Of a DNA stretch of 64,000 bases, positions 4,495 to 55,002 are shown one piece after another (positions within the stretch are counted from its first letter, which is position 1; every line of letters begins with the position of its first letter). Location of the stretch: NCBI GenBank assembly GCA_934271715.1, contig CAKQRZ010000001.1:18819-82818 (forward strand). Reading direction: 5' to 3'. Origin of the DNA: an uncultured Alphaproteobacteria bacterium. Its GTDB lineage: Bacteria; Pseudomonadota; Alphaproteobacteria; RF32; CAG-239. The notes beneath the pieces were generated by a model that worked only from the letters and a program-made list of their open reading frames with translations, was not told the DNA's origin and did no database searches. A program made the translations under genes and the position numbers.

Positions 4495-4553
4495 CCTTTG
4501 AATAGCTTATTTTTCATATTTCTTTCCTCTTAAATTATGTTGTTTACACTCCA

Positions 4554-17242: not shown

Positions 17243-17402
17243 AATTTTAAATCCTCCTTTTTCATTTCTAAAAATGTATATAGGGAGCGATTTTTGCCTA
17301 TGCAAGAGCGGGCAGTATTTTTTTGAAAAAATTTTAATAAAGCCGTTTTAAAAATAAAAAGACACCCTTTCTGCCAAAACAGAGAGGGTGCCTGATAAAA
17401 GA

Positions 17403-18500: not shown

Positions 18501-18622
18501 AAATATAAGTATTAAAGTTAATAATAAAATTTCAGCCTAAACTATACATTAAAAGGTAAATTTTGTCAATAATATAAAAAAACTTCCGCCGCATAAAATC
18601 GGAGGAAGTTTTTTTGCTTAGT

Positions 18623-19849
18623 TCAGCGATGGGCTTTCATATACTTTGTCAGCAAATAGAAAGTCGGATTGTTCGGCACGCAGCGGGCGTAATTTTCCAG
18701 CAAATCATAGCGCTGTAAGTCTATCAGCTTATAGATATGGGCGTCGCTGATGTTTTTGCCGTCAATCAAAGCCTTGATTTCCTGCCCGACGTTGCGGCGC
18801 AAGATTTCGTCAACCGTATAGTCCGAAACCTTATAAATCCGCGCCAGACTGGAAATCTCATCTTTAGAGCCGCGGGTAAGAATTTGTTTTTCAAACCATT
18901 CCTGCTTATTCCAATGTTTCAGCAGATGAGGCAGCTGGCCGGTGTGGCGCAGCAAAGCGAGAACTAATAATTCATCGCCTTTTTCCAGAACAGCCGCAAC
19001 GACTTTTTCCGTAATCGGAGAGTAGCCGCGGCAATCAAGGTTAATAAACTTTGCGGCGCAAGAGTACAATTCAAGGTCAATCAAATGAACAATACCTTTT
19101 TCGGTGGCCAGAAAATCATTTTCTATAAACGCTTTAATCTCTTCCAGATTTCCGCGGAAAATAATTTTGTCACGGTCTTCAGGACTCAAATGAACCGGCG
19201 AGTTGCATTTTATTGACTGCATCAGAGCCATAATTGCCTCATGATGTCCGCAATCAATTATTTGAGAAACGCTTTCCTGCCTTTGCAAGCCGGACTTAAT
19301 TGCCAAAGTTTGTTCAGCAGCTTTGCCGCGGGCAACGAGTGATTGTTCCAGCTCTTTAGAAACAGTAATATTCTTTGTTAGGAGAATTTCTATCTCGTCC
19401 TCAACACCTCTTTCAACAATGATGTTAGCAATCTCGGCAGAAATGCTTTGACAAAGGAGCAATGCTTTTATTTCATCGCTGATGTTTCGCTTAACAATCA
19501 TATTCTTCAGTTTCTCAGAAACTTTCTGGTTATACAGCAATAATCTGATACAGTCGCTGTTGCCTTGCTGCACAATCATTTCCGCAGCTTTGCCGCAAAC
19601 AGACTGATGTGAAATCATATCTAAAGTCTCGGCAGGCAGCTGTTCTATTAAAAGAACTTGGTTTGCGTCGCTCAGGGTGCGTTTTCTGACAAAATAGCCT
19701 CTTAACTCAGCTTCATTATAGCGTAAAATAAGAGCCTTCTGCATTTTTTCCGAAAAATCATAGTCAGAATCCAGCAGCTGAAAAACTTCATCTACAGTAC
19801 CTTTTTGCACTAGCTTTGCAAAGCGGTTATTAAAATAATTCCAAAACAT
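18623..19849 (-). CDS. Hypothetical alpha-helical repeat protein, paralog of 17403..18500
   Basis: Same repeat core, for example MIVKRNISDEIKALLL, IIVERGVEDEIEILL, QILTRGSKDEISSLA and EILRRNVGQEIKALI. Confidence 0.45.
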   Translation of the reverse strand: MFWNYFNNRFAKLVQKGTVDEVFQLLDSDYDFSEKMQKALILRYNEAELRGYFVRKRTLSDANQVLLIEQLPAETLDMISHQSVCGKAAEMIVQQGNSDCIRLLLYNQKVSEKLKNMIVKRNISDEIKALLLCQSISAEIANIIVERGVEDEIEILLTKNITVSKELEQSLVARGKAAEQTLAIKSGLQRQESVSQIIDCGHHEAIMALMQSIKCNSPVHLSPEDRDKIIFRGNLEEIKAFIENDFLATEKGIVHLIDLELYSCAAKFINLDCRGYSPITEKVVAAVLEKGDELLVLALLRHTGQLPHLLKHWNKQEWFEKQILTRGSKDEISSLARIYKVSDYTVDEILRRNVGQEIKALIDGKNISDAHIYKLIDLQRYDLLENYARCVPNNPTFYLLTKYMKAHR

Positions 19850-19935
19850 AATGATAAAATTTTAGTGAAACAATAATAAAAAAAACACAGCCATTATATA
19901 TCATGACTGTGCTTTTTTGTCAAGCTAATGTTTGT

Positions 19936-22080
19936 CTAAATTATGCCGATAAGATTTTGCTTTATGTTTTCGGCAGCGTCCAAGCGGTAATAGTTTTTGT
20001 TAGAGACATTCTGCGGATAGTATTCAGAAATGCCCAAAGCAAAAATATTGGCCTGCTGGTTGATAAAATCACGGCTCAGGTTGATGGCGTCGGCGCTGGA
20101 AATCAGATATTCCTTAAAGCTGCCGATAGAATCTTTAGCCTCGTTTACAAAATTGTTGTGCTGGTTAAAGATAAACGAAAACTTGAAGATTGTGGCTATC
20201 ATGGCAATCAGCAAAAACGAGGTTATGCCGCCGATGTAAATGCTGCAAAAAAGCCAAACAAAAAACAGCGCGGCTAAGGCAAACAGCTTAAACGGCAGAC
20301 CGACAAGCATATGCTTGAATCTGTGGCACAAAATCCAGATATAAAAAGCAAAAAGCAAACTGCAGGAAAGCATGATAATCAGGCTTTGCGCCATGTTGGT
20401 GCTGATATTGGCAATAAAAATTTCGGTCAGAATCAGCATAGCGGTGCTGAACAGAACATAGCTGATGTTTTGCAAAAGACGGTATTTTTTTATTTGTTTT
20501 TTAATGCCTTTTTCAAAAATACGCTTAGCTTTTTTCAGTTTCAGATTGTTGGACGCATTAACTTCAAGCTGTGTTGTTTTTTTAGAAAACAGCTGACCCA
20601 GCGCCTTTTTTTCTATTTTAGTAAGCTTGCTGTTTTTGAGGCTTTTGGCGGCCAAAAAGCAGCGTCCGCCGTCGCAAACCAGGTCTATGGCGTTTTTGCG
20701 GTACAAATCCAAAAGCTGCGCTACATAGGCGATACGGTCAAATTTGCCGATAGCAATGCTGCGGGCAAGCGCGCCGCTGTATGACGGCTTGTATTTGTTT
20801 CTGCGTTCTTTTTTCAGCCCGAAAAGCGATAGGATAAAGGAAATTAAAATCGCGGCAAAACCGGCTCCGGCATAAATAATATTGCCCCAGTCGGTTAAAA
20901 ATAAGGTAATGTTTTTGTCGTAATCTTTTATAAATACGCTGCGGCTCATCACGGTAATCACATCCATTTTTTCGCCGTTCAGCAAAGGCGTAACGTTTGA
21001 AAACGCCAAAACGTTTTTAGCCAGATTAAACACATTGGTTCTTTGATTGGTTGCATTATCGCTGCTGCCGACCAGCGGCATGGCGTCGCGGAAAGAATGT
21101 CCCTCCGGCAGCGTAACAATGGCGTTGGCCGAAGTTATAAAGGCGTTGAGCGGACGTCCGGTCAGGCTCCAGTCCATAAATACTTTATTTCCGGCGGTTT
21201 GCAGCTTGTTGTTAACCATATAGCTGAATTTATAGGTATAAACCCCGGGTTCCAGCTGCTGGTTATATTTAGGCTTCAGCAAAATATTGCTGCCGTTTTC
21301 TTCTGCGGTGTAGGGAACTTTGGTGTTGTTTACAGTCACCTCATCCAAAATAAGCTCTATGCGGTGGCCGCGTTTGCCCTGATAATAGGTGTATTTAGGA
21401 AAAACGCGCTCCAAGCCTTTGGCAAATTTTTTGCCGTTGGCGACAATGGTTATAGTGTCTTCAACTTTGATATAGCCGTTAGACTGAATATCTATATAGC
21501 TCAAAAAATATGGAATATGTTCCAGTGCCGGAGCCAAAATTTTACGTCCGTTCGGCAGGGTTACGCTCACGGTTGGAATACGCTCTTCCTGCGGCATGGC
21601 TTGAGTCTGTTGCTGAGCTTTTACAAAAAAGCGCGTGGCCGAGCGGGCGGCTTGCTCTTCCTGTGAAGCGGCGCTGTTTTCGGCCTGCGGCTCGTCTTTT
21701 TTGTCATTTTGGTGCAGAGCTTTTAAGGTTTCTTCATAAATTTTTTCAAAAGTGCTTTTACTTTCTTCTTTTTGGCGGTCATAAAATTCCGGAGGCGGCA
21801 CCACGCTGGAAGAGGACGCTTTATCCCATTGCGTGCTTTCATCCATTTTCATTTTAGCGGTTTCTTCAAATCTTTTTTTAAAGAATTCGCGGACGGCTTC
21901 TTCATCATTCGGGTCCGGCATTCCGGGCGGCAAAGCCAGCGGGTCTTTCGGCTGTTCGTGATTTTTTGCCTGCTGCGCCTCAAATTCCGGCAGTCCGGCC
22001 AGCGGAATTACCGAAGCGGCGGCAGATTCTGCCAGACAGCCTAACGCCAAAATAAAAGCAAATGAAAAAAATCTATTCAT
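19936..22080 (-). CDS. Membrane protein: signal peptide, a large extracytoplasmic domain, then a C-terminal multi-TM region (DUF2207-like architecture)
   Basis: N-terminal MNRFFSFAFILALGCLAESAAA. Hydrophobic segments lie around aa 400-420 and aa 540-660. Confidence 0.4.
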   Translation of the reverse strand: MNRFFSFAFILALGCLAESAAASVIPLAGLPEFEAQQAKNHEQPKDPLALPPGMPDPNDEEAVREFFKKRFEETAKMKMDESTQWDKASSSSVVPPPEFYDRQKEESKSTFEKIYEETLKALHQNDKKDEPQAENSAASQEEQAARSATRFFVKAQQQTQAMPQEERIPTVSVTLPNGRKILAPALEHIPYFLSYIDIQSNGYIKVEDTITIVANGKKFAKGLERVFPKYTYYQGKRGHRIELILDEVTVNNTKVPYTAEENGSNILLKPKYNQQLEPGVYTYKFSYMVNNKLQTAGNKVFMDWSLTGRPLNAFITSANAIVTLPEGHSFRDAMPLVGSSDNATNQRTNVFNLAKNVLAFSNVTPLLNGEKMDVITVMSRSVFIKDYDKNITLFLTDWGNIIYAGAGFAAILISFILSLFGLKKERRNKYKPSYSGALARSIAIGKFDRIAYVAQLLDLYRKNAIDLVCDGGRCFLAAKSLKNSKLTKIEKKALGQLFSKKTTQLEVNASNNLKLKKAKRIFEKGIKKQIKKYRLLQNISYVLFSTAMLILTEIFIANISTNMAQSLIIMLSCSLLFAFYIWILCHRFKHMLVGLPFKLFALAALFFVWLFCSIYIGGITSFLLIAMIATIFKFSFIFNQHNNFVNEAKDSIGSFKEYLISSADAINLSRDFINQQANIFALGISEYYPQNVSNKNYYRLDAAENIKQNLIGII

Positions 22081-22164
22081 AAAATGCGTCCTTCGTGTTT
22101 ACAAATTAAATAGTTTTGTTTAATATAACGGCTAAAGATTAAAAAAGTTATAAGGAGACATCCC

Positions 22165-22890
22165 ATGAAACAAAAAGTTGCAGCAGTTATTTTGGGCGCC
22201 GGAAAAGGCACCCGCATGCATTCGGATAAACCGAAAGTTTTGATGCCGGTTTGCGGAAAATCTATGATTAAGCGTATTATTGATACGCTGGAAAGCATTC
22301 CGGTTGATGAAATTGTTACGGTAATTTCTCCGGACGGCAAAGACGTGGCTAAAGAGGTTGCGCCGTATCCTACCTGCGTGCAGGAATTGCAGCTCGGCAC
22401 CGGACACGCCGTAAACTGCGCCAAGGATTTCTTGAAAGATTTTGACGGCACGGTTTTAGTGATTTTCGGCGATACTCCGCTGATTACCCGCCGCACTTAT
22501 GAACGCGCCATAGAAAAAGTTGAAAGCGGCTATGCCGTTGTGGTGCTGGGTTTCCGCCCGAAAGACGCCGCCCGCTACGGACGCTTGGTTATGGACGGCG
22601 ACGAGCTTGACCGCATTGTGGAATTTAAAGACGCCACAGACGCCGAAAAAGCTATTGATTTTTGCAATTCAGGGTTTATGTCTTTCAGCGGCAGGCACCT
22701 GTTTTCTATTCTGTCAAAAATCGGCAATAAAAACGCTTCCGGCGAATTTTATTTGACAGACGCGGTTGCGGTTGCCAAGCAAATGGGGCTGAAATGCACG
22801 GCGTTTGAGAGCGATGCCGAAGAAGTTGCCAGCGCCAACACCTTAGAAGAATTGGCTCAGTTGGAAGAATTTTGCCGAAAGAACAGTTAA
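22165..22890 (+). CDS. Sugar-phosphate nucleotidyltransferase (GlmU N-terminal-like domain only)
   Basis: N-terminus AAVILGAGKGTRMHSDKPKVL and the motif LVIFGDTPLI. There is no LbH acetyltransferase domain. Confidence 0.55.
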   Translation: MKQKVAAVILGAGKGTRMHSDKPKVLMPVCGKSMIKRIIDTLESIPVDEIVTVISPDGKDVAKEVAPYPTCVQELQLGTGHAVNCAKDFLKDFDGTVLVIFGDTPLITRRTYERAIEKVESGYAVVVLGFRPKDAARYGRLVMDGDELDRIVEFKDATDAEKAIDFCNSGFMSFSGRHLFSILSKIGNKNASGEFYLTDAVAVAKQMGLKCTAFESDAEEVASANTLEELAQLEEFCRKNS

Positions 22891-23582
22891 TGGAACGCTT
22901 TTTTAAGTTATTGTACTATTATTGCTTGGGACTGCTGGTGTTTGTCACGGTTTATATGGTGGCAATGCTGGCGGCTGCGCCGAAAAACGACGCCTTAAAC
23001 CGCGGCTTTATTCCCTGCACGCGTGATTTTGTAACCAAGGTTTCGGACTGCGGACGCGGCGAACTGAGCTGTATGGCAGCCGGAATCTGGCAAGATACAA
23101 AATGCAATCTGTATGTTATTTTTGACGGGGCAGGGGCTTGGCTGCGCGGCAAACAGCCGACGCCGTGGGCAAACTATTTGTTTGAACCAAAAAGCGAAGC
23201 CGAAATTGATACCGAAAATCAATATATCGGCGTGATCAGTCAGGATGTCGGAGTTTTGGAAGCGCAGCGGCAGTTCATGGAAAATCGCCAGAAAGAGCTG
23301 GAAGAGGCTAAGCACCGCAGCTTGAATCTGGATAAAAATGTTCTGCCGGCCGATGACGCGGAGCCAAACGGCAAGTATGATACAAAAGAAGAAGCGGAAC
23401 CGGCTCAGCCGGATGAAAATTCTGATATTGACGAGGAAGCGTTTTTAGAGGATTTTGAACCGGAGGCGGAAAATGCTCAGAAAGCTGAAACTCCGGTTTC
23501 GGAAAATGAAAAAACTAAGGCTTTGCTGAAACAAAATGCTCAAAAAAGCACAGAGAAAAAAGGAGAAATAAATGACAAATAA
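22890..23582 (+). CDS. Hypothetical membrane-anchored protein with an acidic C-terminal tail
   Basis: N-terminal TM segment (LLYYYCLGLLVFVTVYMVAMLAAA) and a D/E-rich C-terminus. Confidence 0.35.
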   Translation: MERFFKLLYYYCLGLLVFVTVYMVAMLAAAPKNDALNRGFIPCTRDFVTKVSDCGRGELSCMAAGIWQDTKCNLYVIFDGAGAWLRGKQPTPWANYLFEPKSEAEIDTENQYIGVISQDVGVLEAQRQFMENRQKELEEAKHRSLNLDKNVLPADDAEPNGKYDTKEEAEPAQPDENSDIDEEAFLEDFEPEAENAQKAETPVSENEKTKALLKQNAQKSTEKKGEINDK

Positions 23583-25353
23583 AATGCCGGCCTGGGACTT
23601 AAGCGACTACTATACAAGTATTGAAGACCCGAAAATTGCTGCAGATTTGGAAGAATACCGCCAAGGCACGGAAGAATTTGCCAAACGCTATAAAGGCAGA
23701 TTGGCGGAATTGTCAGCTGAAGAATTTTTGACAGCGGCAAAAGATATTGAACGCCGCTCCAAAATCGCCAGTCGTTTGGGCGGGTTTGCCTACCTTAATA
23801 TGGTTACGCAGATGAAAAATGTGGAAGCCGTGGCGTTTTATCAGGATATTCAGGAAAAACTGACGGATTACTGCAAGCCGGCAATTTTCTTTTCGCTGGA
23901 ATTTAACGCTTTGCCGGATGCAAAAATAGACGAATGGCTGCAAAATAAAGATGTGGCGTTCTATAAATATTGGATAAAGCGTATGCGCAAGTTTAAAGAT
24001 TATGAGCTTTCGGAGCCTGTGGAAGAAATTTTGGTTGAAAAATCTTTGACTTCTTCCGAAGCTTGGGTGCGTTTGTATGAAGAAACATCTTCCCGCTTGG
24101 TGTATACGGTTGACGGTCAAGAATATAACGATGCCGAACTTTCTAAACTGATGCTGGATAAAGACCCGAAAATCCGCGAAAAAGCCGGTAAAGAGCTGAA
24201 CCGTGTTTTGAAAGAAAACGGACATCTCATGACCTTTATTTATAATATGGTGATGAAAGATAAAGCCATTGAAGATGAAAAACGTGGCTTTAAAACTCCG
24301 GTTTCTTCCCGCAACTTAAGCGAGGATGTCAGCGATGAAACAGTTGAAGTTTTGGCGCAGACCGTGAAAAAGCACTATAAAGATATTTCTGAGCGTTTTT
24401 ATAAGCTTAAGGCAAAATGGCTCGGAGTTGAAAAAATTGCCTATTGGGACCGAAACGCTCCTCTGCCGTTTGCCGATGACACCACATACAGCTGGGACGA
24501 GGCGGTGCAGATTGTGCTGAATGCCTATAAAGAATTTTCGCCGAAGCTGTACAATATCGCTAAAGATTTCTTTGACCACAACTGGATAGACGTTCCGCCT
24601 CGTGACGGCAAGCGCAGCGGCGCTTTCTGCAGCGGACCGATTAGCGATGAGCACCCTTATTTGATGCTGAATTTTGTGGGCAAGCAGAATGATGTTTTGA
24701 CTTTGGCGCATGAGCTGGGACACGGCTGCCATCATCAGCTGCGTTTGAAAAACGGCGAGCTGAATGAGCATTCGCGCATGACTTCAGAGGAAGTGGCTTC
24801 GGTGTTTGGGGAAATGATGGTGTTCCAGTCCATGCTGCGCAATTTGAAAGACGACAAAGCTAAACTGTGCCTCATTGCTTCTAAAGTCGGCGATATGATT
24901 AACACCGCCATTCGTCAGATTGCTTTTCACTTTTTTGAAACCCGCGCCCATGATGAGCGTAAAAACGGCGAGGTTTCGGAAGAGCGTCTGTGCGAAATCT
25001 GGCTGGAAGAAATGCGCGACAGTTTGGGCGAATATGTGGAAGTAACCGATGACAGCAAGCATATTTGGTCTATGGTCGGACACTTCTTCTTCCTGCCATT
25101 CTATGTTTACGCCTATTCATTTGCCGATTGTTTTGTAAACTCGTTGTATCAGGTCAGCCAATCCGGCAAGGTGGAAAATTTTGCCGACAAATATTTGGAT
25201 ATGCTTTCTAAAACTGCATTGGAAGACTATGACAAGATTTTGGCTCCGTTTGGTTTAAATCCGAACAGTCCGGATTTTTGGGAATATGGTCTATCCCTGA
25301 TTTCATCGTATATTGATATGTTGGAAGAGCTGGATAGAAAAATAGACTGGTAA
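23572..25353 (+). CDS. pepF: Oligoendopeptidase F (M3B family), paralog 2
   Basis: HELGHGCHH motif. Collinear similarity to 10374..12146. Confidence 0.8.
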   Translation: MTNKMPAWDLSDYYTSIEDPKIAADLEEYRQGTEEFAKRYKGRLAELSAEEFLTAAKDIERRSKIASRLGGFAYLNMVTQMKNVEAVAFYQDIQEKLTDYCKPAIFFSLEFNALPDAKIDEWLQNKDVAFYKYWIKRMRKFKDYELSEPVEEILVEKSLTSSEAWVRLYEETSSRLVYTVDGQEYNDAELSKLMLDKDPKIREKAGKELNRVLKENGHLMTFIYNMVMKDKAIEDEKRGFKTPVSSRNLSEDVSDETVEVLAQTVKKHYKDISERFYKLKAKWLGVEKIAYWDRNAPLPFADDTTYSWDEAVQIVLNAYKEFSPKLYNIAKDFFDHNWIDVPPRDGKRSGAFCSGPISDEHPYLMLNFVGKQNDVLTLAHELGHGCHHQLRLKNGELNEHSRMTSEEVASVFGEMMVFQSMLRNLKDDKAKLCLIASKVGDMINTAIRQIAFHFFETRAHDERKNGEVSEERLCEIWLEEMRDSLGEYVEVTDDSKHIWSMVGHFFFLPFYVYAYSFADCFVNSLYQVSQSGKVENFADKYLDMLSKTALEDYDKILAPFGLNPNSPDFWEYGLSLISSYIDMLEELDRKIDW

Positions 25354-25610
25354 ACTCGTCTAATGCAGAAACTCGCCTAATGGCTTTCTGCTGGTAAGAT
25401 TTTTTCTTATGTACTAGTTTGTACACCGCGAAAAAATCTTACTTCGCATTAAGCTCATTATCCGAGTTTCTGCATGCTTGTACCGGTTGTGCTTGTGTAC
25501 CTCGTTGTATACTGCGAAAAAATCTTCGTATTAGCCTCATTATCCGCATTGCTTGACAGAGTGTGCTATTTAAAACCACGCCCCGTAAGGAGGTAAATAA
25601 TATTAGCCAA

Positions 25611-26339
25611 TTAAAATGTCAATACAACGGCACAGGCATCATCTTTAGCACATCCGGAACAATATTTGTTTATATCAGATAAAGATAATTGATTAAAACA
25701 TTTTTTATCGGCACCGTTGCAATAACTATCCCCATAAAAAGCGACAGCTATAGGAAATATCAAAACATATTTTAAGGATGAGTGTAAAGGAGTTGCTATA
25801 TTTTGCACAAACTTTTCACATAAGCTATGAGAAAAATTTGCAGATACAGATTTTCCATCCTCATTTGTTACCCAGCCGCCTAGGTACATATCAAATACTA
25901 AGTCATTGCTGCGAAGGTAAATATTGAAATAATTGCCTAAATTGTCGTGTAAATATGGCCATTCAGGCGGAAGCAGATTTATATTTCTAAAAAATTCATT
26001 AAAATGTGTGCCATTTTTTTGTTTTTTTATGTATTGCAGGTGTTCTGTTATGCCAAAAAGTATATGAGAATAACCATCAATAGCTTTATTGATTTTGTAT
26101 TGCTCCATAGCTTTGGAATATCCGGCAATCCCGCCCACGCTCAACACGCCGATAATGGCCAGCACGCCAAGCATTTCTATCATACTGCGGCCGGATTGAG
26201 AAAAAGTACCATACCTGCGTCCCCAGCACCCATCATTCTTTGGTTTATCCCAAGAATCTTGTGTGAACCAGCTTTTATTTAATAATAAGGCTAATTTGTT
26301 GACTAGGTTAGAGACTCGTTGCCACAAGATTCTAGGCAC
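25611..26339 (-). CDS. Type IV pilin-like protein with an A-module 5' region. The frame is open upstream to about 26576, and the ATG at 26585-26587 is out of frame.
   Basis: ...YGTFSQSG|RSMIEMLGVLAIIGVLSVGGIAGYSKAMEQYK. The C-terminal tail is CSGCAKDDACAVVLTF. Confidence 0.75.
   Translation of the reverse strand: MPRILWQRVSNLVNKLALLLNKSWFTQDSWDKPKNDGCWGRRYGTFSQSGRSMIEMLGVLAIIGVLSVGGIAGYSKAMEQYKINKAIDGYSHILFGITEHLQYIKKQKNGTHFNEFFRNINLLPPEWPYLHDNLGNYFNIYLRSNDLVFDMYLGGWVTNEDGKSVSANFSHSLCEKFVQNIATPLHSSLKYVLIFPIAVAFYGDSYCNGADKKCFNQLSLSDINKYCSGCAKDDACAVVLTF
26164..26291. repeat. 128-bp inverted repeat, left arm. It is 127/128 identical to 27023-27150 in inverse orientation.
   Basis: The reverse complement of 26164-26291 equals 27023-27150 except for one C/T difference. 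The arm covers the pilin leader/N-terminus coding region of both divergent genes. Confidence 0.9.
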
Positions 26340-26550
26340 AAGGCCTAGAATGACAGGTACTAGAGGCGCAGACTTAGTGTTGGTTAATAGATTGCTTCGC
26401 TTTGCTCGCAGTGACGGCAGAGCAAGAGGCGAGCCTGTTAGTTTTGTTCTTAATGCGTTATTACCGAAAGTATCATTTTTTCTGCCAAATCCTGTAAAAA
26501 CGTGCTGAACGGCAGAAAAAGCGCCTTTAATCAGATGTTCAGGATTTGCA

Positions 26551-26564
26551 GAGAGAGAGAGAGA
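26551..26564. repeat. (GA)7/(CT)7 tract of the A-module
   Basis: Direct reading. The ATG frame reads MKNKQSKGLSLSLQILNI*. Confidence 0.9.
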
Positions 26565-26624
26565 CCTTTGGATTGCTTATTTTTCATCTTTCTTTCCTCT
26601 ATATTTAAGTTATTTTATACCTTT

Positions 26625-26654
26625 ATTCTACAACAGCCTCACTCCATAAGTCAA
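26625..26654 (-). promoter_or_regulatory. Sigma70-like promoter of the A-module (TTGACT-N18-TAGAAT)
   Basis: Minus strand: TTGACTtatggagtgaggctgttgTAGAAT. Confidence 0.55.
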
Positions 26655-26686
26655 CCGTAAAATCAAAGCATTGGAAGAATCGGAAG

Positions 26687-26862
26687 TGTGTAAAAAAAAC
26701 GACCGTTTAAAATGGACAGTTTTTAGGCTGTTTTTAGTAATGTAGCAGAGGTTGTTAAAATTTGCAATAACTTTTTATATTTGCGATGTTTTTTGCGGTT
26801 TTATAAAAATTTACAGCGTCTTGTTTTGAGTGTGTAAAAATAACGGTCGTTTTTTTTACACA
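26687..26862 (+). repeat. B-module IR-bounded element, copy 2
   Basis: Inverted repeats at 26687-26707 and 26842-26862, followed by taataggaggaataagATG at 26879. Confidence 0.8.
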
Positions 26863-26878
26863 TAATAGGAGGAATAAG

Positions 26879-27760
26879 ATGTTTAAGAGTATAGAATTTT
26901 TAAGAGGAAAGAGCAGGGGGAGAGTAGGTGGATGCGGTGGACTCTCGCCTCTAGCACCAGTCATTCTAGGTCTTGTACATAGAATCCTATTGCAACAAAT
27001 CTCTAACCCAGTCAATAAATTTGCCTTATTATTAAATAAAAGCTGGTTCACACAAGATTCTTGGGATAAACCAAAGAATGATGGGTGTTGGGGACGCAGG
27101 TATGGTACTTTTTCTCAATCCGGCCGCAGTATGATAGAAATGCTTGGCGTATTAGCTATAGTAGCTGTTCTCTCAGTCGGCGGGATTGCTGGATATTCCA
27201 AAGCTATGGAAAAGTGGAAAGAAAATAAAGTCATCGGCGAATACAGTTACTTAATACAGGGAATTATAGAGCATTTGAGCGACTTTGAAAAACTGAAAGA
27301 CGAGGAAGTCCGCTATGATTTATTGCCGACCTTAGCGGCAATGAATTTGCTCCCCGGCAACTGGAAAAATACAGACGAATATGAAGGGCATAAAAATGTA
27401 TCAGATACCTTAGGCAATACTTTGTCTGTTTTCAGCCGCAGCGACAGAGTGGTTATGACTATATTGTTTGGCGCTAGTTCGGTTTCCGAAAGCGGAGATA
27501 CCGTTTCGCAAACTTTTTCCGGACAATTATGCAAAGCATTTTGGCAAAATATTTTAGTTCCCTTACATAATCAAATTTATTATGCAGGAGTTTATCGCAG
27601 TAAATATTATGAGCGTGCAAATTATTATTTTAATGATAAATATTGCGGCGGCAAAAATCAATGCTTCAGTGAAATCAAATTGAATGATATAGAAAGAATA
27701 TGCAGCGCCTGCGCTTCCGGGGAAGAATATTGCGTGCTTACTTGGGAGTTTGATTATTAG
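26879..27760 (+). CDS. Type IV pilin-like protein with a B-module N-terminal extension, in frame
   Basis: MFKSIEFLRGKSRGRVGG...(81 aa)...SQSG|RSMIEMLGVLAIVAVLSVGGIAGYSKAMEKWK. The C-terminal tail is CSACASGEEYCVLTWEFDY. Confidence 0.75.
   Translation: MFKSIEFLRGKSRGRVGGCGGLSPLAPVILGLVHRILLQQISNPVNKFALLLNKSWFTQDSWDKPKNDGCWGRRYGTFSQSGRSMIEMLGVLAIVAVLSVGGIAGYSKAMEKWKENKVIGEYSYLIQGIIEHLSDFEKLKDEEVRYDLLPTLAAMNLLPGNWKNTDEYEGHKNVSDTLGNTLSVFSRSDRVVMTILFGASSVSESGDTVSQTFSGQLCKAFWQNILVPLHNQIYYAGVYRSKYYERANYYFNDKYCGGKNQCFSEIKLNDIERICSACASGEEYCVLTWEFDY
27023..27150. repeat. 128-bp inverted repeat, right arm
   Basis: See 26164-26291. Confidence 0.9.
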
Positions 27761-27990
27761 AATGTAAAAAAGCCGGATTCAAATTAATGAAACCGGCACT
27801 TACTCTCGGAAACTCGGATAATGAGGCTAATACGCATTAACTTTTTTGCGCCGTGTACAAACTAGTACACAATAGACTAGCAGAAACTCGTATAGCGGGC
27901 GTAGATGCGACGGAATTTTTAAGCGACGTGTACACAATAGTACACAAGCGCAAAAATCCCTAGCAGATACCAGCTAGACGAGTTTCTTCA

Positions 27991-28533
27991 CTAATAAAAA
28001 TAGTAGCGGGCGCCGATTGTAAATTCCTTGCTGTTGTTATAGGCGTCGCCGTCAGCCAAAGAATAGCGGTACATTGCGCGGAAACCCCATTCCGGAGTCG
28101 GGTTAATTTCTCCGCCGATACCCAGACGCAGGGCGTTTGCCGTATCTTTGTCGTTTTTGCCGTTGTATTTTAAGTTAGAAGTAATACGTCCGTAACCGAC
28201 AGAACCTAAAATCGTAGCGTCAGAAACATTGTACATATCAACCAAAACATCGGCGCCATAGCCATAAAAACGGCTGCGGGCTACGTTTGAACCTAAAACT
28301 TTCTTTTCTTGTGCAGAGCGTTCGGTAAAAAATTCTATTGAGCCATAATCAACAAATTTTACACCGGCGGTCAGGCTGCCCAAATCATAGTTATCAGCGT
28401 GAGTATTTTCATATCTGCCTTTTAAATTCGGTGTCATATTAACATAATCAAAGCCGACATACGGGCGGAATTCTCCGGCATTGGCGGAAACAGCGGCCAG
28501 CAGACCGGCGGCAATCAACAAATATTTTTTCAT
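27991..28533 (-). CDS. Outer-membrane beta-barrel protein (OmpW/Opa-like small porin family)
   Basis: Signal peptide MKKYLLIAAGLLAAVSANA. Alternating amphipathic strands and a C-terminal ...YYFY. Confidence 0.55.
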   Translation of the reverse strand: MKKYLLIAAGLLAAVSANAGEFRPYVGFDYVNMTPNLKGRYENTHADNYDLGSLTAGVKFVDYGSIEFFTERSAQEKKVLGSNVARSRFYGYGADVLVDMYNVSDATILGSVGYGRITSNLKYNGKNDKDTANALRLGIGGEINPTPEWGFRAMYRYSLADGDAYNNSKEFTIGARYYFY

Positions 28534-28616
28534 TTTGCATTCTCCTTTTAATCTATTATCGCTTTTATACGACACAATTTATGACTGAAAGGTTAATACA
28601 TACTTTTTTTGTTATT

Positions 28617-31325
28617 TTAGTGTGCGGAAGCCCAAGTGTCGCCGATACCGGTTTCCACCACCATTTTTACGGCGGTATTGGCGACATCTTCCATAATTTT
28701 CTGCAGCAAAGCCGCGGTTTGTCCGGCGTGTTCGGCCTTGACTTCAAGCACCAGTTCATCATGTACTTGCAGCAATAGACGCCCATCCAGCTGATGTTCC
28801 TGCATGGCTTGATAAACCTTTTGCATCGCCAGTTTTACGATGTCCGCCGCACCGCCCTGTATCGGCGCGTTAATCGCTGCCCGCTCGGCAAACGAAACAA
28901 TGCGGTGATTTTTGTCGTTGATTCCCAGCACGGCGCATTTACGCCCCAGCGGCGTCAGCACATAGCCGTGGCTGCGGGCAAAAGCTATGGTCTTTTCCAT
29001 ATAGGTTTTGACTTCCGGCATCGCGGCAAAATACGAATCTATATATTGCTTGGCAATTTCTTTAGTGGTGCCGATTTGCTTGGCTAAGCCAAACTGAGAG
29101 ATTCCGTAAACAATTCCGAAATTTATGGCCTTGGCGCGGTTGCGGTGTTCTCGGTCAACTTCTTCCGGCTTCAGCCCAAACACCCGGGCAGCTGTAGCGG
29201 CGTGAATATCCACACCGGCGGCAAAGGCTTCTTTGAGGGCTTTAACATCGGCAACCGACGCCAGCAGACGCAGCTCCATCTGGCTATAGTCCGCCGCCAC
29301 AATTTTATAGCCCTTGCGCGCCACAAAGCAGGCGCGGATTTTACGCCCGATTTCCGAGCGGTTCGGAATATTCTGCAAATTCGGATTAGATGACGCCAAA
29401 CGCCCCGTATTCACTACCGTTTGCGAAAAAGTGGTATGCACGCGGTTGTTTTGGTCTTTTACTTCCAGCAGGGCGGTGGTGTAGGTAGATTTGAGCTTGG
29501 CATAGCTGCGCCATTCCAAAATATTGGCGGCGATTTCGTGTTCTTCCGCCAGCTGTTCCAAAACTTCGGCGCTGGTGTTATAGTTGCCTGTTCCCGCCGT
29601 TTTTTTCGCCCCGCTGAAACCCAGCTTGTCAAAAAGAACTTCGCCGATTTGCTTGGGCGAACTTAGGTTGAAAGTTGTGCCGGCCAGCGCAAAAATCTCG
29701 TTTTCACATTGGCTCATCTGGCGGGCAAACTCATCGTTTAGTTCTGCCATGCAGTTTTCGTCAATAACAATCCCTTCATCTTCCATTTTCAGCAGCACCT
29801 GAATCAGGCGGCGGTCAAGCATTTCATAAACATACATTTTGCGCTCGTGAAACAGGCTGTCTTTCAAAATGTGATAAAGCCGCAAAGCATAGTCTGCGCT
29901 TTCATAAACATAATTGCCGTATTCTTCATTAAAAAAGTCTATTTTTTTGATTTTCTGCGTCAGTTTCGGCAGGGCGATTTTTTTATCCAGCAGCATATCG
30001 CTCAAAACCTGCAATGTATGTTCGTGCAGCGAGCTGTCCACATCATACGACATAACAGCGGCATCGTGATACGGCCACAAATCCAGCTGTTTGCCGCAAA
30101 TTTTATCTAAATAATGCCATTGTGTTTTTAAGTCTAGGGCAATTTTAAGGATATTTTTGTTTTCCATAACTGAAAGCAAAAATTTTTTAACCGTTTCATT
30201 ATCCAGCTGCGAATATTCGTGATGGGCAAACAAATCAGCTTCGCCCGCTACTTGCGGAATCGGTAGATAGCAGGTGCTGTTTTCGGCGGTGCAGATGCTC
30301 AGGGCTTCCGGTTCAACACCGTTATGCAGAACCTGAAAACTGAATTGCTGCGCGGTGCAGATTTCCTGATACAACGCCTTTAAATCATCGCGGTTTTGAA
30401 TTTTAAAGTAGCGCGCCGGTTCTTCTTTTTTAGCCGCTGCCGGAGCGCCGCCCAAGGCGCAGCAGCGCTCTTCAATCCATTTCTGCAGCTTAGGCAGAAT
30501 GCTCTTAAAGCCAAGCTCGTTGACAAAGTTAATTAAGGTTGCGGCATCCGGCGCCTGACACTTAAAATCTTCAAGCGGATGTTCAACCGGAACGTCATCT
30601 TTAAGCGTTACTAATTTCAGCGAAAGCTCGGCCGATTCCTTATTTTGCATTACCAGTTCGCGGCGTTTGGTCTGTTTGATGTTTTCGGCATTATCCAGCA
30701 CGCCCTGCAGCGAGCCGTACAAATTAACCAGCTCCGCCGCCGTTTTGGGACCAATTCCCGGAATCCCCGGAATATTATCTATTTTATCGCCGGAAAGCGC
30801 CTGCACGTCAATAACCTTATCCGGATAAACGCCGAATTTTTCATGCACGTCATCCGGCGTAAAAAAGCGGTCTTTCATACCGTCATAAAATTCCACATGC
30901 GGGCGAATAAGCTGCATAAGGTCTTTATCCGCCGACACCACAACAGCGTCATGGCCGGCTTCTACCGCCTGTTTGGCATAGGTGGCAATCAGGTCGTCCG
31001 CTTCATAGCCCTCTTGCAGAATGCACGGCAGATTCAGCTTTTCTACAGTTTTATAAATCAGTTCAAACTGCGGAATTAAAAGTTCCGGAATCTCGGCGCG
31101 CGTTGCTTTGTAATCGGCAAAAAAATTGTTGCGGAAGTTTTTGCGCTTGGCGTCAAACAGCACTACGCAGTAATCGCAGGGAATAGCCTTTATCAGCCGC
31201 ATGAACATTGTCAAAAAGCCGTATACAGCGTTGACCGGCGTGCCGTCCGGCGCCGTCATGGTCGGCAAGGCGTAAAATGCTCTGAAAATATATCCTGAAC
31301 CGTCAATCAAACAAACTTTTGCCAT
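28617..31325 (-). CDS. polA: DNA polymerase I
   Basis: 5'-3' exonuclease N-terminus (MAKVCLIDGSGYIFRAFYALP), a 3'-5' exonuclease-like middle region, and the polymerase motifs DYSQIELR and QVHDELVLE. Confidence 0.9.
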   Translation of the reverse strand: MAKVCLIDGSGYIFRAFYALPTMTAPDGTPVNAVYGFLTMFMRLIKAIPCDYCVVLFDAKRKNFRNNFFADYKATRAEIPELLIPQFELIYKTVEKLNLPCILQEGYEADDLIATYAKQAVEAGHDAVVVSADKDLMQLIRPHVEFYDGMKDRFFTPDDVHEKFGVYPDKVIDVQALSGDKIDNIPGIPGIGPKTAAELVNLYGSLQGVLDNAENIKQTKRRELVMQNKESAELSLKLVTLKDDVPVEHPLEDFKCQAPDAATLINFVNELGFKSILPKLQKWIEERCCALGGAPAAAKKEEPARYFKIQNRDDLKALYQEICTAQQFSFQVLHNGVEPEALSICTAENSTCYLPIPQVAGEADLFAHHEYSQLDNETVKKFLLSVMENKNILKIALDLKTQWHYLDKICGKQLDLWPYHDAAVMSYDVDSSLHEHTLQVLSDMLLDKKIALPKLTQKIKKIDFFNEEYGNYVYESADYALRLYHILKDSLFHERKMYVYEMLDRRLIQVLLKMEDEGIVIDENCMAELNDEFARQMSQCENEIFALAGTTFNLSSPKQIGEVLFDKLGFSGAKKTAGTGNYNTSAEVLEQLAEEHEIAANILEWRSYAKLKSTYTTALLEVKDQNNRVHTTFSQTVVNTGRLASSNPNLQNIPNRSEIGRKIRACFVARKGYKIVAADYSQMELRLLASVADVKALKEAFAAGVDIHAATAARVFGLKPEEVDREHRNRAKAINFGIVYGISQFGLAKQIGTTKEIAKQYIDSYFAAMPEVKTYMEKTIAFARSHGYVLTPLGRKCAVLGINDKNHRIVSFAERAAINAPIQGGAADIVKLAMQKVYQAMQEHQLDGRLLLQVHDELVLEVKAEHAGQTAALLQKIMEDVANTAVKMVVETGIGDTWASAH

Positions 31326-31479
31326 TTTTATTTTCTCCTTGTCCGTCAATATAGCGGCTTTTTAAGCATTCGCCAAGCATTAAAAATTTTTCTTTGCGCT
31401 TTTGTTTATAAAAACTTCTTTAACTTATTTTATATATAGTGCAGGCTAAGAGATTTTGGACTGAAAATGAGAGAATAAA

Positions 31480-33549
31480 ATGCCGCAAAACGTAAAACAA
31501 AAAATCCGCCGCAAACTCAAAAAAGGTTTGGTAATTTTAGAAGATACCGTGCGCAAAACCAAAGCGAAAAGCGCTGCCAAAAAGAAATCGGCGCCTAAGA
31601 AAAAACGCTCGTCAAAAAAGAAAAAAGGCGGTTCTTCGCTATGGAAAGTTTTGTTTATTCTCGGCTTGTGGCTGGGACTGTTTTTGTTTATTGCTGTCGG
31701 CTCTTATGTGGCGTATTGCTACTTTACCATGCCGGATATTGCCAAGGCCGTGGCGCAGACACGCCAGCCGTCAACCACGATTATGGCAGAAAACGGCAGT
31801 GATATCGCTTCATTCGGCAATGTCTATGCTGAAGTGATATATCCGGATAATCTGCCGAAAAATTTGACCAACGCCATTATTGCCACCGAAGACCGCCGCT
31901 TTTACAAACACTTCGGCTTTGATGTCTGGGGCTTTGGGCGCGCCATGGTTACCAATCTGTTCCGCGGCCGCTATGCTCAAGGCGCCTCCACTATTACGCA
32001 GCAGGTGGCGAAAAACATCTTTTTAACGCCGAACAAAAATATTAAACGTAAAGTTCAGGAGCTGCTGCTGGCATTTTGGCTGGAAAATAAGCTGACGAAA
32101 AATCAGATTATGGCGCTGTATTTGAACCGTGTATACTTTGGCTCCGGCACCTATGGCGCGGAAGCGGCCGCCAACTGGTATTTCAATAAAAGCGCCGGCG
32201 ATTTAAACCTGCGCGAGGCGGCGATTTTGGCGGGCATGCTTAAAGCCCCGAACAGCTACAACCCGATTTTAAACCGTGAAAAATCGCTGGAACGCGCCAA
32301 TGTGGTTCTGCACAATATGCTGGAATGCGATTATATAAATCAAAAGCAATACGCTTCCGCCAAAACTTTGCCTGTCAGCAACGGCCAGCAATACCGCGTC
32401 AGCGGCGGCAAGCACTTTGCTCAATATGTTTATGACGAAGTCAACAGCTATATCGGCGAACGTTCGGTTGATATAAATGTTATGACAACTCTGGACCAAA
32501 AACTGCAGGAAAGCGCCGAAAAAATCCTGCGTTCGCATATTTGGGGCGCTAAAGGCAAAAACGTCAGCGAGGGCGCGGTTGTGGTTATAGACTACAGCGG
32601 TGCTATTAAAGCCATGGTCGGCGGCATGGATTATAACCGCAGCCAATTTAACCGCGCGGTGCAGGCTATCCGCCAATCAGGCTCGGCGTTCAAGCCTTTT
32701 GTTTATCTCACGGCTTTGCAATACGGCTTTGCGCTGGATAGTATGGTTAATGACGCACCGCTCAAAATCGGCAAATGGCAGCCGTCAAATTACAGCAAGC
32801 GCTATTACGGCAATGTTACTTTGGATTTTGCCCTCACCCATTCACTAAACGTGGCGACAGCGGCGCTTTCTAAGGAACTGTATCTAAAGGATATTGCCGC
32901 CAACGCCCGCAAAATGGGTATCAGCACCAAGCTAAACTTGACTCCGTCCATGGTTTTGGGAACAAACGGCGTTAAAGTATTAGATATGGCGGCAGCATAC
33001 GCCGTGCTGGCTAACGGAGGCTATGCGGTTTGGCCGCATGCAATTAACGAGATTTCCAGCAAAGACGGCCATCAGCTTTATGTGCGCCAGCCTGACAAGC
33101 AAAAGCAGATTATCGCCGGCAATATTGTTAAGCAAATGGCGCAGATGCTAAGTCACGTTATTACCCGCGGTACCGGTAAAAAAGCGCAGCTTCCGTATTT
33201 TGCCGCCGGAAAAACCGGAACCACGCAAAACTACCGCGACGCTTGGTTTGTGGGCTGGGCCGGCGGCTATGTGGCGGCGGTTTGGGTCGGCAACGACAAC
33301 GAAAAGCCGATGAATAAAGTCGGCGGCGGCACTATTCCGGCGGAAATTTGGCACGATGTAATGCTGGCGGCGCACAATATCAGACCGCTTTCCGATGAAA
33401 CTGACGACATCGGCGCGCTGATTGATGACAATGCTTCAGCTGACAGTATCGGCGACTTGATAGAGGAAGAAGATTTAGCCGACGAACCGAAGGTAAAAAC
33501 TAAGTCATCTCCCTCTACTTTAGAGGGCTTGCTGGACAGCATTTTTTAG
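31480..33549 (+). CDS. Penicillin-binding protein 1A family (bifunctional transglycosylase/transpeptidase)
   Basis: N-terminal TM segment. GT51 motifs EDRRFYKH and GASTITQQ. Transpeptidase motifs SGSAFKP and KTGTT. Confidence 0.85.
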   Translation: MPQNVKQKIRRKLKKGLVILEDTVRKTKAKSAAKKKSAPKKKRSSKKKKGGSSLWKVLFILGLWLGLFLFIAVGSYVAYCYFTMPDIAKAVAQTRQPSTTIMAENGSDIASFGNVYAEVIYPDNLPKNLTNAIIATEDRRFYKHFGFDVWGFGRAMVTNLFRGRYAQGASTITQQVAKNIFLTPNKNIKRKVQELLLAFWLENKLTKNQIMALYLNRVYFGSGTYGAEAAANWYFNKSAGDLNLREAAILAGMLKAPNSYNPILNREKSLERANVVLHNMLECDYINQKQYASAKTLPVSNGQQYRVSGGKHFAQYVYDEVNSYIGERSVDINVMTTLDQKLQESAEKILRSHIWGAKGKNVSEGAVVVIDYSGAIKAMVGGMDYNRSQFNRAVQAIRQSGSAFKPFVYLTALQYGFALDSMVNDAPLKIGKWQPSNYSKRYYGNVTLDFALTHSLNVATAALSKELYLKDIAANARKMGISTKLNLTPSMVLGTNGVKVLDMAAAYAVLANGGYAVWPHAINEISSKDGHQLYVRQPDKQKQIIAGNIVKQMAQMLSHVITRGTGKKAQLPYFAAGKTGTTQNYRDAWFVGWAGGYVAAVWVGNDNEKPMNKVGGGTIPAEIWHDVMLAAHNIRPLSDETDDIGALIDDNASADSIGDLIEEEDLADEPKVKTKSSPSTLEGLLDSIF

Positions 33550-34263: not shown

Positions 34264-34524
34264 TTACAAAGTATGTGTGTGCGTGCCGGTTGCAGCTAGC
34301 AAAACTATTTTATTATCCTTAATTTGATAAATTAAAATCCAGTCCGGTTCAATATGCAAATCGCGGTAGCCTTGCCAATTATGTTTCAGCGGGTGGTCTT
34401 TATATTGCGGAGGTATTGCTTCTTCAGTTTCTAACATTTTTAATATGGTGTGCAATTTACCCATATTTTTACCTTGTTTTTTACATAATTTATAATCTCG
34501 TAAAAAAACGATTGGAATATTCAA
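34264..34524 (-). CDS. yafQ: Type II toxin YafQ (RelE/ParE superfamily)
   Basis: HPLKHNWQGYRDLHIEPDWILIYQIKDNKIVLLAATGTHTHTL closely matches the YafQ consensus. Confidence 0.75.
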   Translation of the reverse strand: MNIPIVFLRDYKLCKKQGKNMGKLHTILKMLETEEAIPPQYKDHPLKHNWQGYRDLHIEPDWILIYQIKDNKIVLLAATGTHTHTL

Positions 34525-34534
34525 ATGTCCGCAC

Positions 34535-54988: not shown

Positions 54989-55002
54989 GAGAGAGAGAGA
55001 GA
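54989..55002. repeat. (GA)7/(CT)7 tract of an A-module
   Basis: Direct reading. Confidence 0.9.

Follow-up and report, generated by a model that had tools for sequence, protein, structure and literature searches.

A polar, hairpin-forming repeat at the stop codons of convergent genes in uncultured human-gut Alphaproteobacteria

Two related inverted repeats lie between pepF and an outer-membrane protein gene

We analysed a 64,000-nucleotide stretch of DNA (hereafter the window) from an uncultured alphaproteobacterium, and describe here a palindromic element that occurs in it in two clusters. In the window, pepF and a gene for a beta-barrel outer-membrane protein (OMP) point towards each other, and between them stand two divergently oriented pilin-like genes, A and B (Table 1). 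An initial annotation of this DNA had described the two flanks of the pilin-like pair as imperfect inverted repeats carrying a GCAGAAACTCG motif, and had placed them exactly between the stop codons of the pilin-like genes and the neighbouring genes, pepF and the OMP gene. Both statements were borne out.

Exact copies of GCAGAAACTCG are found at 25365-25375 (+), 25463-25473 (-) and 27880-27890 (+), and a copy with one mismatch at 27979-27989 (-); these four are confined to the two gaps and none is coding. With up to one mismatch allowed, the whole window holds 7 matches against 1.06 expected, a number reached by none of 100 shuffles. The flanks match each other in inverted orientation over 82 nt at 78% identity (25407-25488 versus 27791-27872), or over 61 nt at 85% by blastn, and have the exact 20-mer CGTATTAGCCTCATTATCCG in common. 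The left flank does contain two tandem units as had been annotated, but their period is 82-86 nt, not about 60, and the basic unit measures 103-104 nt.

Anatomy and folding of the element

The basic unit is an imperfect palindrome of 103-104 nt composed of GAAACTCG, a left arm, the central hairpin (G)TGTAC-N5/6-GTACA(C), a right arm and CGAGTTTC. Two full copies are present in the window, L1 next to pepF and R2 next to the OMP gene, each with a partial unit on its 3′ side in its own orientation (L2 and R1, respectively). An unfiltered covariance-model search of the window matched L1 at 25368-25470 (113.9 bits on the + strand, 47 bits on the - strand) and R2 at 27883-27986 (110.6 bits on the - strand, 42 bits on the + strand), with partial matches at 25472-25552 and 27850-27872. 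Neither this search nor blastn revealed a further flank-type copy in the 64 kb window, and none was found in the ~20 kb searched past the window ends; the organism thus has two element clusters in the ~84 kb surveyed. A contig of a Hadza gut metagenome matches window positions 15572-33353 with 100% identity.

The GAAACTCGTCTAGCTGG end of R2 begins 4 nt past the OMP stop codon, i.e. 7 nt from the first base of that stop. The OMP C-terminus looks intact, ending in an aromatic residue as is typical of beta-barrel OMPs, and the element therefore starts right after the gene's own stop codon. Reading by eye, we found stops at +10, +27 and +47 in the sense frames of L1.

Folded as RNA, L1 reaches -44.6 kcal/mol (z -9.6) and R2 -44.9 kcal/mol (z -7.1), and full elements form a hairpin of about -45 kcal/mol on either strand, single-copy folds having z values of -7 to -9.6. 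Among 48 distinct full copies, 46 measure 103-105 nt, two are shorter (95 and 96 nt) and one, with an additional 17-mer, reaches 121 nt. In the terminal inverted repeats (TIRs) GAAACTCG and CGAGTTTC, six of eight pairs are invariant; there is a double change at pair 1 and a wobble change at pair 2, and one of 18 representative copies has a broken pair 7. The RNAalifold consensus of these 18 representatives comprises 34 pairs, 13 of which show compensatory double changes between the arm subtypes described below.

The partial units and their surroundings are of mixed origin. L2, a hybrid, scores 15.5 bits with the covariance model and has no significant fold by itself (z -0.05). Its end is that of a type D module, which combines a central hairpin like that of the element with other arms. 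The linker between L1 and L2 is the left half of a GCCGG-type terminator hairpin that is found 3′ of many copies elsewhere. On the OMP side, the array is closed by an intrinsic-terminator-like hairpin (-16.3 kcal/mol and z -4.6 for 27762-27812(-)), which forms at the same place when the whole 3′ region is folded. On the pepF side, a degenerate copy of a second, G+C-rich repeat forms, on the - strand, a weak hairpin followed by TTTTAAAT directly 3′ of the stop codon of pilin-like gene A, and may be the terminator of that gene. This G+C-rich repeat (..ATTTAAAACCTCGCCCCCTGCGGGAGAGGTCGG..) recurs beside elements of the window type: its window copy (25565-25600) is degenerate, a copy lies at 1826-1875 of the related locus L006, and intact copies occur in L006, L024, L030 and L108.

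Rfam 15 gave no match at gathering score in the window, none on the elements at E ≤ 5 in 25300-28050, and none on elements at E ≤ 1 in the related loci L052, L042 and L086. In L086 there is a weak match to sRNA-Xcc1 at 6145-6232 (-) (30.4 bits where the gathering score is 53; E 0.09), absent from the search of 25300-28050. By alignment offset it corresponds to about 4460-4550 of the window, a conserved region upstream of a pilin-like gene, and it is probably due to chance.

The element belongs to a family of dispersed repeats

We scanned one genome per GTDB species with the pattern TGTACNNNNNTGTACACN{30,45}CGAGTTTC, which describes the central hairpin and right end; it requires both to be intact and carries no information on left ends, on the left-hand GAAACTC or on genes. 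The scan returned at least 115 stretches and more, about seven of which are isolated chance matches while the others form families built on one plan.

Family A, that of the window, accounts for at least 55 blocks of 8 kb in at least 14 gut alphaproteobacterial assemblies, on many contigs. One metagenome-assembled genome (MAG), CAKQUE, has at least 13 clusters with at least 33 central hairpins on 6 contigs, and the copy number looks like tens, not hundreds, per genome. The carriers are relatives of the window organism with 77-93% nucleotide identity over kilobases, such as the human-gut MAGs HGM16763, UMGS1578, CAKQUE, CAKQLP and CAKQUG, labelled as uncultured Alphaproteobacteria. MAG labels are unreliable, and bins labelled Eubacteriales, [Ruminococcus] gnavus, Bacteroidaceae, Clostridia or Gastranaerophilales also carry family A elements (Table 1). 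The contig of the one such bin tested, L065, aligns with the window over 5.6 kb at 82% identity; judging by sequence, the oddly labelled contigs are probably alphaproteobacterial and their bins mislabelled or contaminated. In practice, family A elements can help to flag mis-binned contigs, and they are a likely cause of broken assemblies and of rearrangements in these MAGs.

Family B, whose element is 146 nt long, has many copies in several Legionella species and in MAGs of Legionellales, Rickettsiales and other groups (Table 1). With its 19 nt TIRs TAGACTTCTTTCGAAACTC, TA at both ends and unrelated flanks, it is a textbook miniature inverted-repeat transposable element (MITE), and its centre is a TGTAC-N-GTACAC hairpin. 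Families A and B share the subterminal GAAACTC/GAGTTTC and the central TGTAC-N-GTACA, which is at the palindrome axis in both. Some family B copies lie inside called open reading frames (ORFs). Further variants occur in other Alphaproteobacteria, e.g. L019, L045 and L077.

A literature search on Legionella MITEs gave no description of the 146 nt family B, and none of the family A element was found in the literature searched. Family A is a hitherto undescribed repeat of the REP/ERIC/MITE kind, native to uncultured human-gut Alphaproteobacteria, and is unusual in its strict polarity, its free apical loop and a core shared across phyla.

The element is polar and anchored at the stop codon of its owner gene

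We then asked how the element is placed relative to genes. The counts given here are among the matches listed in the scan, and genes in related loci were called by a crude longest-ORF procedure. Left-type ends, GAAACTCGNCTA(AT/GC)TGG, have the form GAAACTCG(T/G/C)CTA(AT/GC)TGG. Of 49 such ends, 46 come after the stop codon of an ORF with 90 codons or more, and in 43 this stop lies between 12 nt upstream of the element and 10 nt inside it; where the two overlap, the ORF ends in an element-encoded -KL(G/V/D) tail. An ORF end of this kind is seen at only 2 of 79 right-type ends. The right end reads ...CCGAGTTTC-TGAGAG, and what comes after it is commonly a GCCGG-type hairpin with a T-run, further partial units or other repeat modules: behind 78 right ends we counted 25 hairpins with T-run (strict test), 13 further units, 8 type D modules and 32 other repeats. 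Element clusters lie between convergent genes in 30 of 41 cases and between divergent genes in none, against a background of 51 convergent gaps in 325 (16%; binomial p = 4e-16).

The element is thus a dispersed, polar, hairpin-forming repeat that is anchored at stop codons, concentrated between convergent genes and often followed by a terminator. Its owners in the window are pepF (+) and the OMP gene (-). The two flanks are 3′ appendages of these genes, not of the pilin-like genes; because the two owners run towards the pilin-like pair from opposite sides, the appendages look like inverted repeats that frame the pair. Taken by itself, this assignment of identity and ownership seems to us very probable.

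Relatives have the same junctions. pepF is followed by the element in HGM16763 (L040), UMGS1578 (L118) and CAKQUE (L123), in L040 with no pilin-motif ORF adjacent, and the order pilin-like gene, elements, OMP gene recurs in CAKQUG (L071). pepF and OMP-polA are not neighbours in related species, so that no conserved site exists as a target for the insertion of an island. The proposal that the flanks bound an inserted pilin island thus finds the polar end of the element at the wrong genes, abutting the stops of pepF and the OMP gene, and is not supported; one point in favour of the initial annotation is that some strain breakpoints (see below) fall inside the arrays.

Could family A nonetheless be selfish, i.e. 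non-autonomous transposon remnants with GAAACTCG/CGAGTTTC as TIRs, mobilised in trans, tolerated only just after stop codons and between convergent genes and without function for the host? The element has the structural features of a MITE, being shorter than 300 bp, non-coding, bounded by TIRs and dispersed in many copies; the MITE-like family B has the same subterminal and central motifs; arms are near-identical in different species; and a bias to 3′ ends is what purifying selection on any insertion would produce. Such selection against harmful insertions alone does not, however, predict the strict polarity (43/49 versus 2/79). Neither a target-site duplication nor a clean empty site was found for the window-type family: its flanks show no consistent direct repeat, the left end having one or two tandem 17-mers instead, and in comparisons of the window with L086 and with L098 the loci are not collinear past the shared gene. 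Among strains, only the number of units varies cleanly. Among nearby insertion sequences (IS), the only ones examined (IS1595, in L006 and L008), no transposase with matching ends was found; the TIR of IS1595, GGG(G/T)CATGCCTAGAT, is unrelated to the element ends, and IS1595 was rejected as an autonomous parent. Finally, the element occupies the same orthologous stop in several species, often as another subtype, which points to long residence with conversion rather than to repeated insertion. Overall, we consider a purely selfish origin the less probable account, though one to be taken seriously.

Table 1. Coordinates of features in the window and in related loci (window positions unless a locus is named).
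Feature	Position or loci	Strand	Remarks
pepF	23572-25353	+	ORF, stop codon at 25353
Gap between pepF stop and pilin-like A stop	25353 to 25611		257 nt; holds left flank
Degenerate 17-mer TAAACTCGTCTAATGCA	25351-25367	+	opens left array; TAA is the pepF stop; 2 mismatches to GAAACTCGNCTARYKG
L1, full 103 nt element	25368-25470	+	arm subtype a, pepF-sense; GAAACTCGCCTAATGG, arm, TGTACTAGTTTGTACA, arm, CCGAGTTTC
Linker TGCATGCTTGTACCGGTTGTGC	25471-25488	+	left half of GCCGG-type terminator hairpin; compare ...TGCAAGCTTGTGCCGGTTGC... in L013, L123 and other loci
L2, partial hybrid unit	25489-25553	+	central hairpin TGTACCTCGTTGTATA, right arm type a then b, type D end ATTATCCGCATTGCTTG
Degenerate copy of G+C-rich repeat	25554-25610	-	GTGCTATTTAAAACC.CGCCCC...GGAGG
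Pilin-like ORF A	25611-26339	-	ORF
Pilin-like ORF B	26879-27760	+	ORF
Gap between pilin-like B stop and OMP stop	27760 to 27991		230 nt; holds right flank
Intrinsic-terminator-like hairpin	27766-27797	-	GCCGGTTTCATTAATTTGAATCCGGC + U6; closes OMP-side array, abuts pilin-like B stop
R1, half unit	27809-27872	-	central hairpin and right arm, subtype b, OMP-sense; 84-85% identical to matching part of L1
R2, full 104 nt element	27883-27986	-	arm subtype c, OMP-sense
OMP gene stop codon	27991-27993	-	TAG; protein end ...GARYYFY, looks intact
Beta-barrel OMP gene	27991-28575	-	then polA (-), then penicillin-binding protein (PBP) gene (+)
Type D module	2283-2400	+	starts at stop of ORF 798-2282; central hairpin TGTACTATTATGTGCA, arms GCGCAAC..CATCTAAAGGCAACTTACG
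Eight paralogous pilin-like ORFs	215-778, 3523-4158, 25611-26177, 27137-27760, 38210-38788, 45096-45686, 54178-54759, 55518-56084		
(CT)n tracts	4480, 26550, 39029, 46056, 54988	-	+ coordinates; start codons 4517, 26587, 39068, 46093, 55025 (-)
YafQ/RelB replacement loci	L006 10645-11451; L014 10645-11434		
Family B loci	L021, L027, L031, L035, L041-L043, L047, L049, L050, L052, L057, L066, L067, L070, L079, L081, L087, L088, L104, L109, L113, L125, L126, L128		
Oddly labelled bins with family A elements	L024, L026, L030, L033, L036, L037, L044, L046, L051, L055, L065, L075, L092, L094-L096, L108, L115, L121, L124, L127		

Pilin-like genes are bystanders

The window contains eight ORFs with a GRSMIEMLGVLAI... 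motif, whose match to the prepilin cleavage/methylation domain TIGR02532 is borderline (16.0 bits, cut-off 16.3). We weighed two explanations that tie the element to these genes. According to the first, the repeats would be pilin island boundaries or 3′ recombination sequences of pilin cassettes, as are the Sma/Cla repeats of Neisseria, which are likewise conserved and lie 3′ of the pilin genes pilE and pilS. Both flanks do adjoin pilin-like genes, the pair lies in a strain-variable region, and in L006, L008 and L013 a second pilin-like gene has an identical R1 half unit and terminator at its 3′ side. Moreover, 13 of 41 clusters have a pilin-like neighbour, against 40 of all 325 gaps (12%), an approximately threefold enrichment (p = 0.003). 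This enrichment vanishes, however, when the comparison is limited to convergent gaps, where a pilin-like neighbour is present in 12 of 31 gaps with the element and 8 of 30 without. In the 13 determinable cases the gene whose stop abuts the element was always a non-pilin gene and never a pilin gene. The initial annotation had raised the question of whether other pilin loci are bracketed alike; only two of the eight pilin-like genes of the window have an element nearby, the other six ending in plain terminators without it. In contrast to Sma/Cla, the owner of the element is the neighbouring gene, which is not a pilin gene, and most pilin-like loci lack it; pepF carries it in L040 without a pilin-motif neighbour, and relatives offer no conserved "empty site". 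A link to pilin genes is hence very improbable, and the suggestion of a pilin-specific recombinase site is not supported.

According to the second explanation, inverted GCAGAAACTCG pairs would be an uptake signal for competence by type IV pili. The motif does occur in inverted pairs beside pilin-like genes, and the inverted DNA-uptake sequence (DUS) pairs of Neisseria double as terminators. Known uptake sequences, however, recur about once per kb genome-wide, a density far above the three exact copies in 64 kb seen here, all of them in elements and none coding, the motif being the TIR of the 104 nt unit. We regard this explanation as scarcely credible. The repeat is essentially the intergenic repeat unrelated to pilin loci that the initial annotation had set against its own proposal, save that hundreds of copies had been envisaged.

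Arms are conserved, the loop is free and halves are exchanged

Three arm subtypes, a, b and c, are found among full copies, each of them self-complementary, and chimeras joined at the central hairpin exist in both combinations of two of them (left-c/right-b and left-b/right-c). Within a subtype, variation is mostly in the first 4-5 bases of the apical loop, the only hypervariable stretch, while the GTGTAC/GTACAC stem around it is invariant and the arms are nearly so, even across species. The stop codon of pepF carries type a in the window and in CAKQUE and type b in HGM16763 and UMGS1578; that of the OMP gene carries type c in the window and type b in CAKQUG; and that of a 211-codon gene ending in ...ADI carries types a, b and c across species. 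Different subtypes at an orthologous stop codon indicate long residence with replacement of, or conversion between, copies.

Strains of the window species vary at the arrays as well. The number of left-flank, L2-like units differs among them. In L006, the pepF-side array is gone, IS1595 and a truncated gene stand in its place and the region is rearranged. The second pilin-like gene of L006, L008 and L013 has an R1 copy, situated after a flavin-reductase gene, whose central hairpin continues into a different left arm; the duplicated block of pilin-like gene, terminator and R1 stops at window position 27872, the centre of R1. Breakpoints inside arrays correspond to window positions 25341, 25526/25546, 27788 and 27872; more often, breakpoints map to the conserved 5′ segment of pilin-like genes (26183-26213, 27117-27131) or to gene ends. 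In none of the 14 strain loci examined had recombination between L1 and R1 inverted the pilin pair as a whole. It is partly shown, then, that element copies act as dispersed, recombinogenic homology: arrays grow and shrink, halves are swapped at the central hairpin and some breakpoints fall inside.

These observations raise the question of whether the element is a dedicated recombination site, in which GTGTAC/GTACAC half-sites with a 6 nt spacer would be bound or cut by a recombinase or hairpin nuclease and arrays would exchange or invert gene-end modules and pilin-like cassettes. Halves of differing subtypes are joined exactly at the central hairpin; L006 and L014 have the same left half after the flavin-reductase gene and diverge from the centre onward; the duplicated block ends at the R1 centre; and inverted half-sites around a short spacer to which variation is confined resemble the core site of a recombinase. 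In addition, polarity and stop-codon abutment recall integron attC sites, also imperfect palindromes of similar length right after an ORF stop, with fixed orientation, conserved ends and a variable centre. Against this, the spacer differs at nearly every locus, and spacer mismatch blocks strand exchange between sites by tyrosine recombinases. The ends of the element are ...TATCCGAGTTTC (right) and GAAACTCGNCTAATGG (left), and the element lacks RYYYAAC/GTTRRRY, the core motifs of attC. The Pfam domains of window 15.5-44 kb include no recombinase or integrase; unlike integrons, the locus has no same-direction cassette array, its owners being convergent housekeeping genes. Most strain breakpoints lie in the 5′ parts of pilin-like genes or at gene ends, not in elements, and short conserved centres are also an obvious place for ordinary homologous exchange or palindrome breakage. 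A dedicated recombination site therefore appears quite improbable. Identities as attC, dif-like site or DUS were all rejected, their defining motifs or densities being lacking.

Several rearrangements were noted in the same strains. An IS1595-family IS at 2440-3260 of L006 and 11771-12454 of L008 occupies the site of window pilin-like gene A, beside a truncated pilin-like ORF. A YafQ/RelB toxin-antitoxin pair (window 34264-34834), downstream of the flavin-reductase gene, is replaced in other strains, in some by a family A element and a pilin-like gene and in one by an element and a hexapeptide-repeat gene. Several same-species strains have the 6-7 kb OMP-polA-PBP segment in inverted orientation relative to pepF (window 27122-33549, up to 34215, compared with L001-L003, L006 and L008), and the block inverted between L006 and L008 has at its two ends near-identical pilin-like genes (219 and 220 aa) that are inverted with respect to each other.

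A possible role at mRNA 3′ ends

What might a stop-anchored palindrome do? In the account that we favour, the element would be transcribed as the start of the 3′ untranslated region (UTR) of its owner gene, where a hairpin of about -45 kcal/mol, with its base or outer stem within mRNA reach of the terminating ribosome, could set the stability or processing of the owner mRNA 3′ end or act on termination-coupled events. It may also buffer the two convergent transcription units from each other: since transcription from either side would pass through the palindrome before it met the far-side terminator, the units would be kept apart and the two transcripts would have complementary ends. The initial annotation had likewise offered a REP-like terminator or insulator; the dispersed hairpin repeat, its convergent gaps and the frequent terminator behind it agree with that idea, while the element itself is not the terminator.

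Several observations weigh against this account. The RNA-level role is drawn from position and analogy. Elements have no T-run after their stems, and a terminator/promoter scan predicts no terminator at L1 or R2, while a clear terminator follows only about a third of right ends. Strand asymmetry in folding, considered as a test for an RNA-level role, gave no asymmetry: the two strands fold equally (mean -42.1 versus -42.6 kcal/mol; 18 copies better in sense, 27 in antisense, 2 tied), so that there is no thermodynamic sign of selection on the sense RNA, and a palindrome maintained at the DNA level would look alike. Finally, it is the arm sequence, not pairing alone, that is conserved across copies and species; conserved arms with a variable loop are better explained by recognition of the sequence itself, or by recent spread and conversion, than by RNA structure as the sole constraint. 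The RNA-level function is accordingly proposed only tentatively, with the balance slightly against it, whereas for the explanation as a whole (identity, owners, RNA function and DNA behaviour) we estimate a probability of about 0.6.

A more far-reaching version is suggested by the invariant GTGTAC/GTACAC stem with its free 6 nt loop, the invariant GAAACTCG ends and the fixed position at stop codons, namely that a specific trans-acting factor recognises the element as a conserved gene-end module acting in cis. The 146 nt element of Legionellales, Rickettsiales and other Alphaproteobacteria has the same central and end motifs. We think this version unlikely. If true, such a factor could couple translation termination to mRNA 3′-end formation between convergent genes, or alternatively could catalyse swapping of gene-end modules at the central hairpin, and in either case the system would be widespread and so far undescribed.

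Comparison with known repeat families

The favoured account draws on analogy with several repeat families. The 127 bp ERIC/IRU repeat affects the upstream mRNA in an orientation-dependent manner, for which a ribosome-dependent mechanism has been proposed (PMC2229807). The element resembles ERIC in being an imperfect palindrome of ~100-130 nt in transcribed intergenic regions of several related genera, but differs from it by lying within ~12 nt of the stop, by its near-fixed polarity, three covarying arm subtypes and hypervariable loop, and by its host clade. To our knowledge, no sequence relation is to be expected between the two.

REP/BIME sequences are extragenic palindromes to which roles in mRNA stabilisation, gyrase binding and transcription termination are ascribed (PMC3733652). 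Like them, the element is found at gene 3′ ends and between convergent genes (30/41). By definition, a REP measures 20-40 nt and has a GTAG or CGTC tag (PMC3733652), and REPs occur in hundreds of copies, whereas the element measures 103-104 nt, has GAAACTCG ends and occurs in tens. The element's stop-proximal position invites a further comparison: in E. coli, REPs within ~15 nt of the stop reportedly cause ribosomes to stall at termination, with lower expression as a result (Liang, Rudd and Deutscher, Mol Cell 2015).

QMITE2 of Coxiella burnetii (150-190 bp, with small REP-like versions) lies mainly in 3′ UTRs and overlaps C-terminal codons by 1-10 bp; it forms a very stable hairpin, is terminator-linked and is conserved between strains (PMC5896051). 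Its host belongs to the Legionellales, where family B lives, and family B may be related to it. Unlike the element, QMITE2 has direct repeats of 7-11 nt and is an IS1111 target; the comparison is by description only, PMC5896051 giving no sequence. Correia/NEMIS elements of Neisseria are MITEs of ~100-155 bp with TIRs and TA ends, a build shared by family B (146 nt, TA-flanked); transcripts of neighbouring genes include them, and RNase III processes the hairpins that they form (PMC2229807). In contrast to Correia elements, the window-type family has neither TA duplication nor IHF site, and takes one fixed orientation relative to the stop codon.

The symmetry around the pilin-like pair comes down to two convergent housekeeping genes with 3′ appendages of the same kind, which removes a false lead. 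What is gained is a repeat family, in poorly known gut Alphaproteobacteria, with strict rules: one orientation, a start at the stop codon, three arm types and a free loop. If these rules reflect function, family A could serve as a model for palindromic repeats that shape mRNA ends at convergent genes.

Further features of the pilin-like gene family

The pilin-like paralogues share a near-identical GRSMIEMLGVLAI(I/V)(G/A)(V/I)LSVGG(I/F)... segment, and several share upstream DNA too. Many strain breakpoints are exactly at the GRSMIEMLGVLAI segment (27117-27131 and 26183-26213). The leader of one pilin-like gene is 86 aa long in the window and 7 aa (MKNNQIG) in L006. A second head-to-head pair lies at 54178-56084.

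Five - strand pilin-like genes have a common upstream module consisting of a ribosome-binding site, ATGAAAAATAAGC... and a (CT)n tract. At four loci n is 7, the fifth reads CTCTAT(CT)5, and all five are out of frame as assembled; one CT fewer, or one more at the interrupted locus, would open uninterrupted ORFs of 281-331 aa that run into the pilin-like ORFs. Across strains, the tract has 7 or 8 units at the same locus and only OFF lengths were seen. From their sequence, these tracts look like slipped-strand translational phase variation of a multigene family.

An operator-like palindrome, TGTGTAAAAA.AACG..CGTT.TTTTTACACA, occurs twice between pilin-like genes A and B (26685-26708 and 26829-26862), the two copies containing a perfect 21 nt inverted repeat (26687-26707 versus 26842-26862). 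The same operator-like motif is present upstream of the pilin-like genes of L006.

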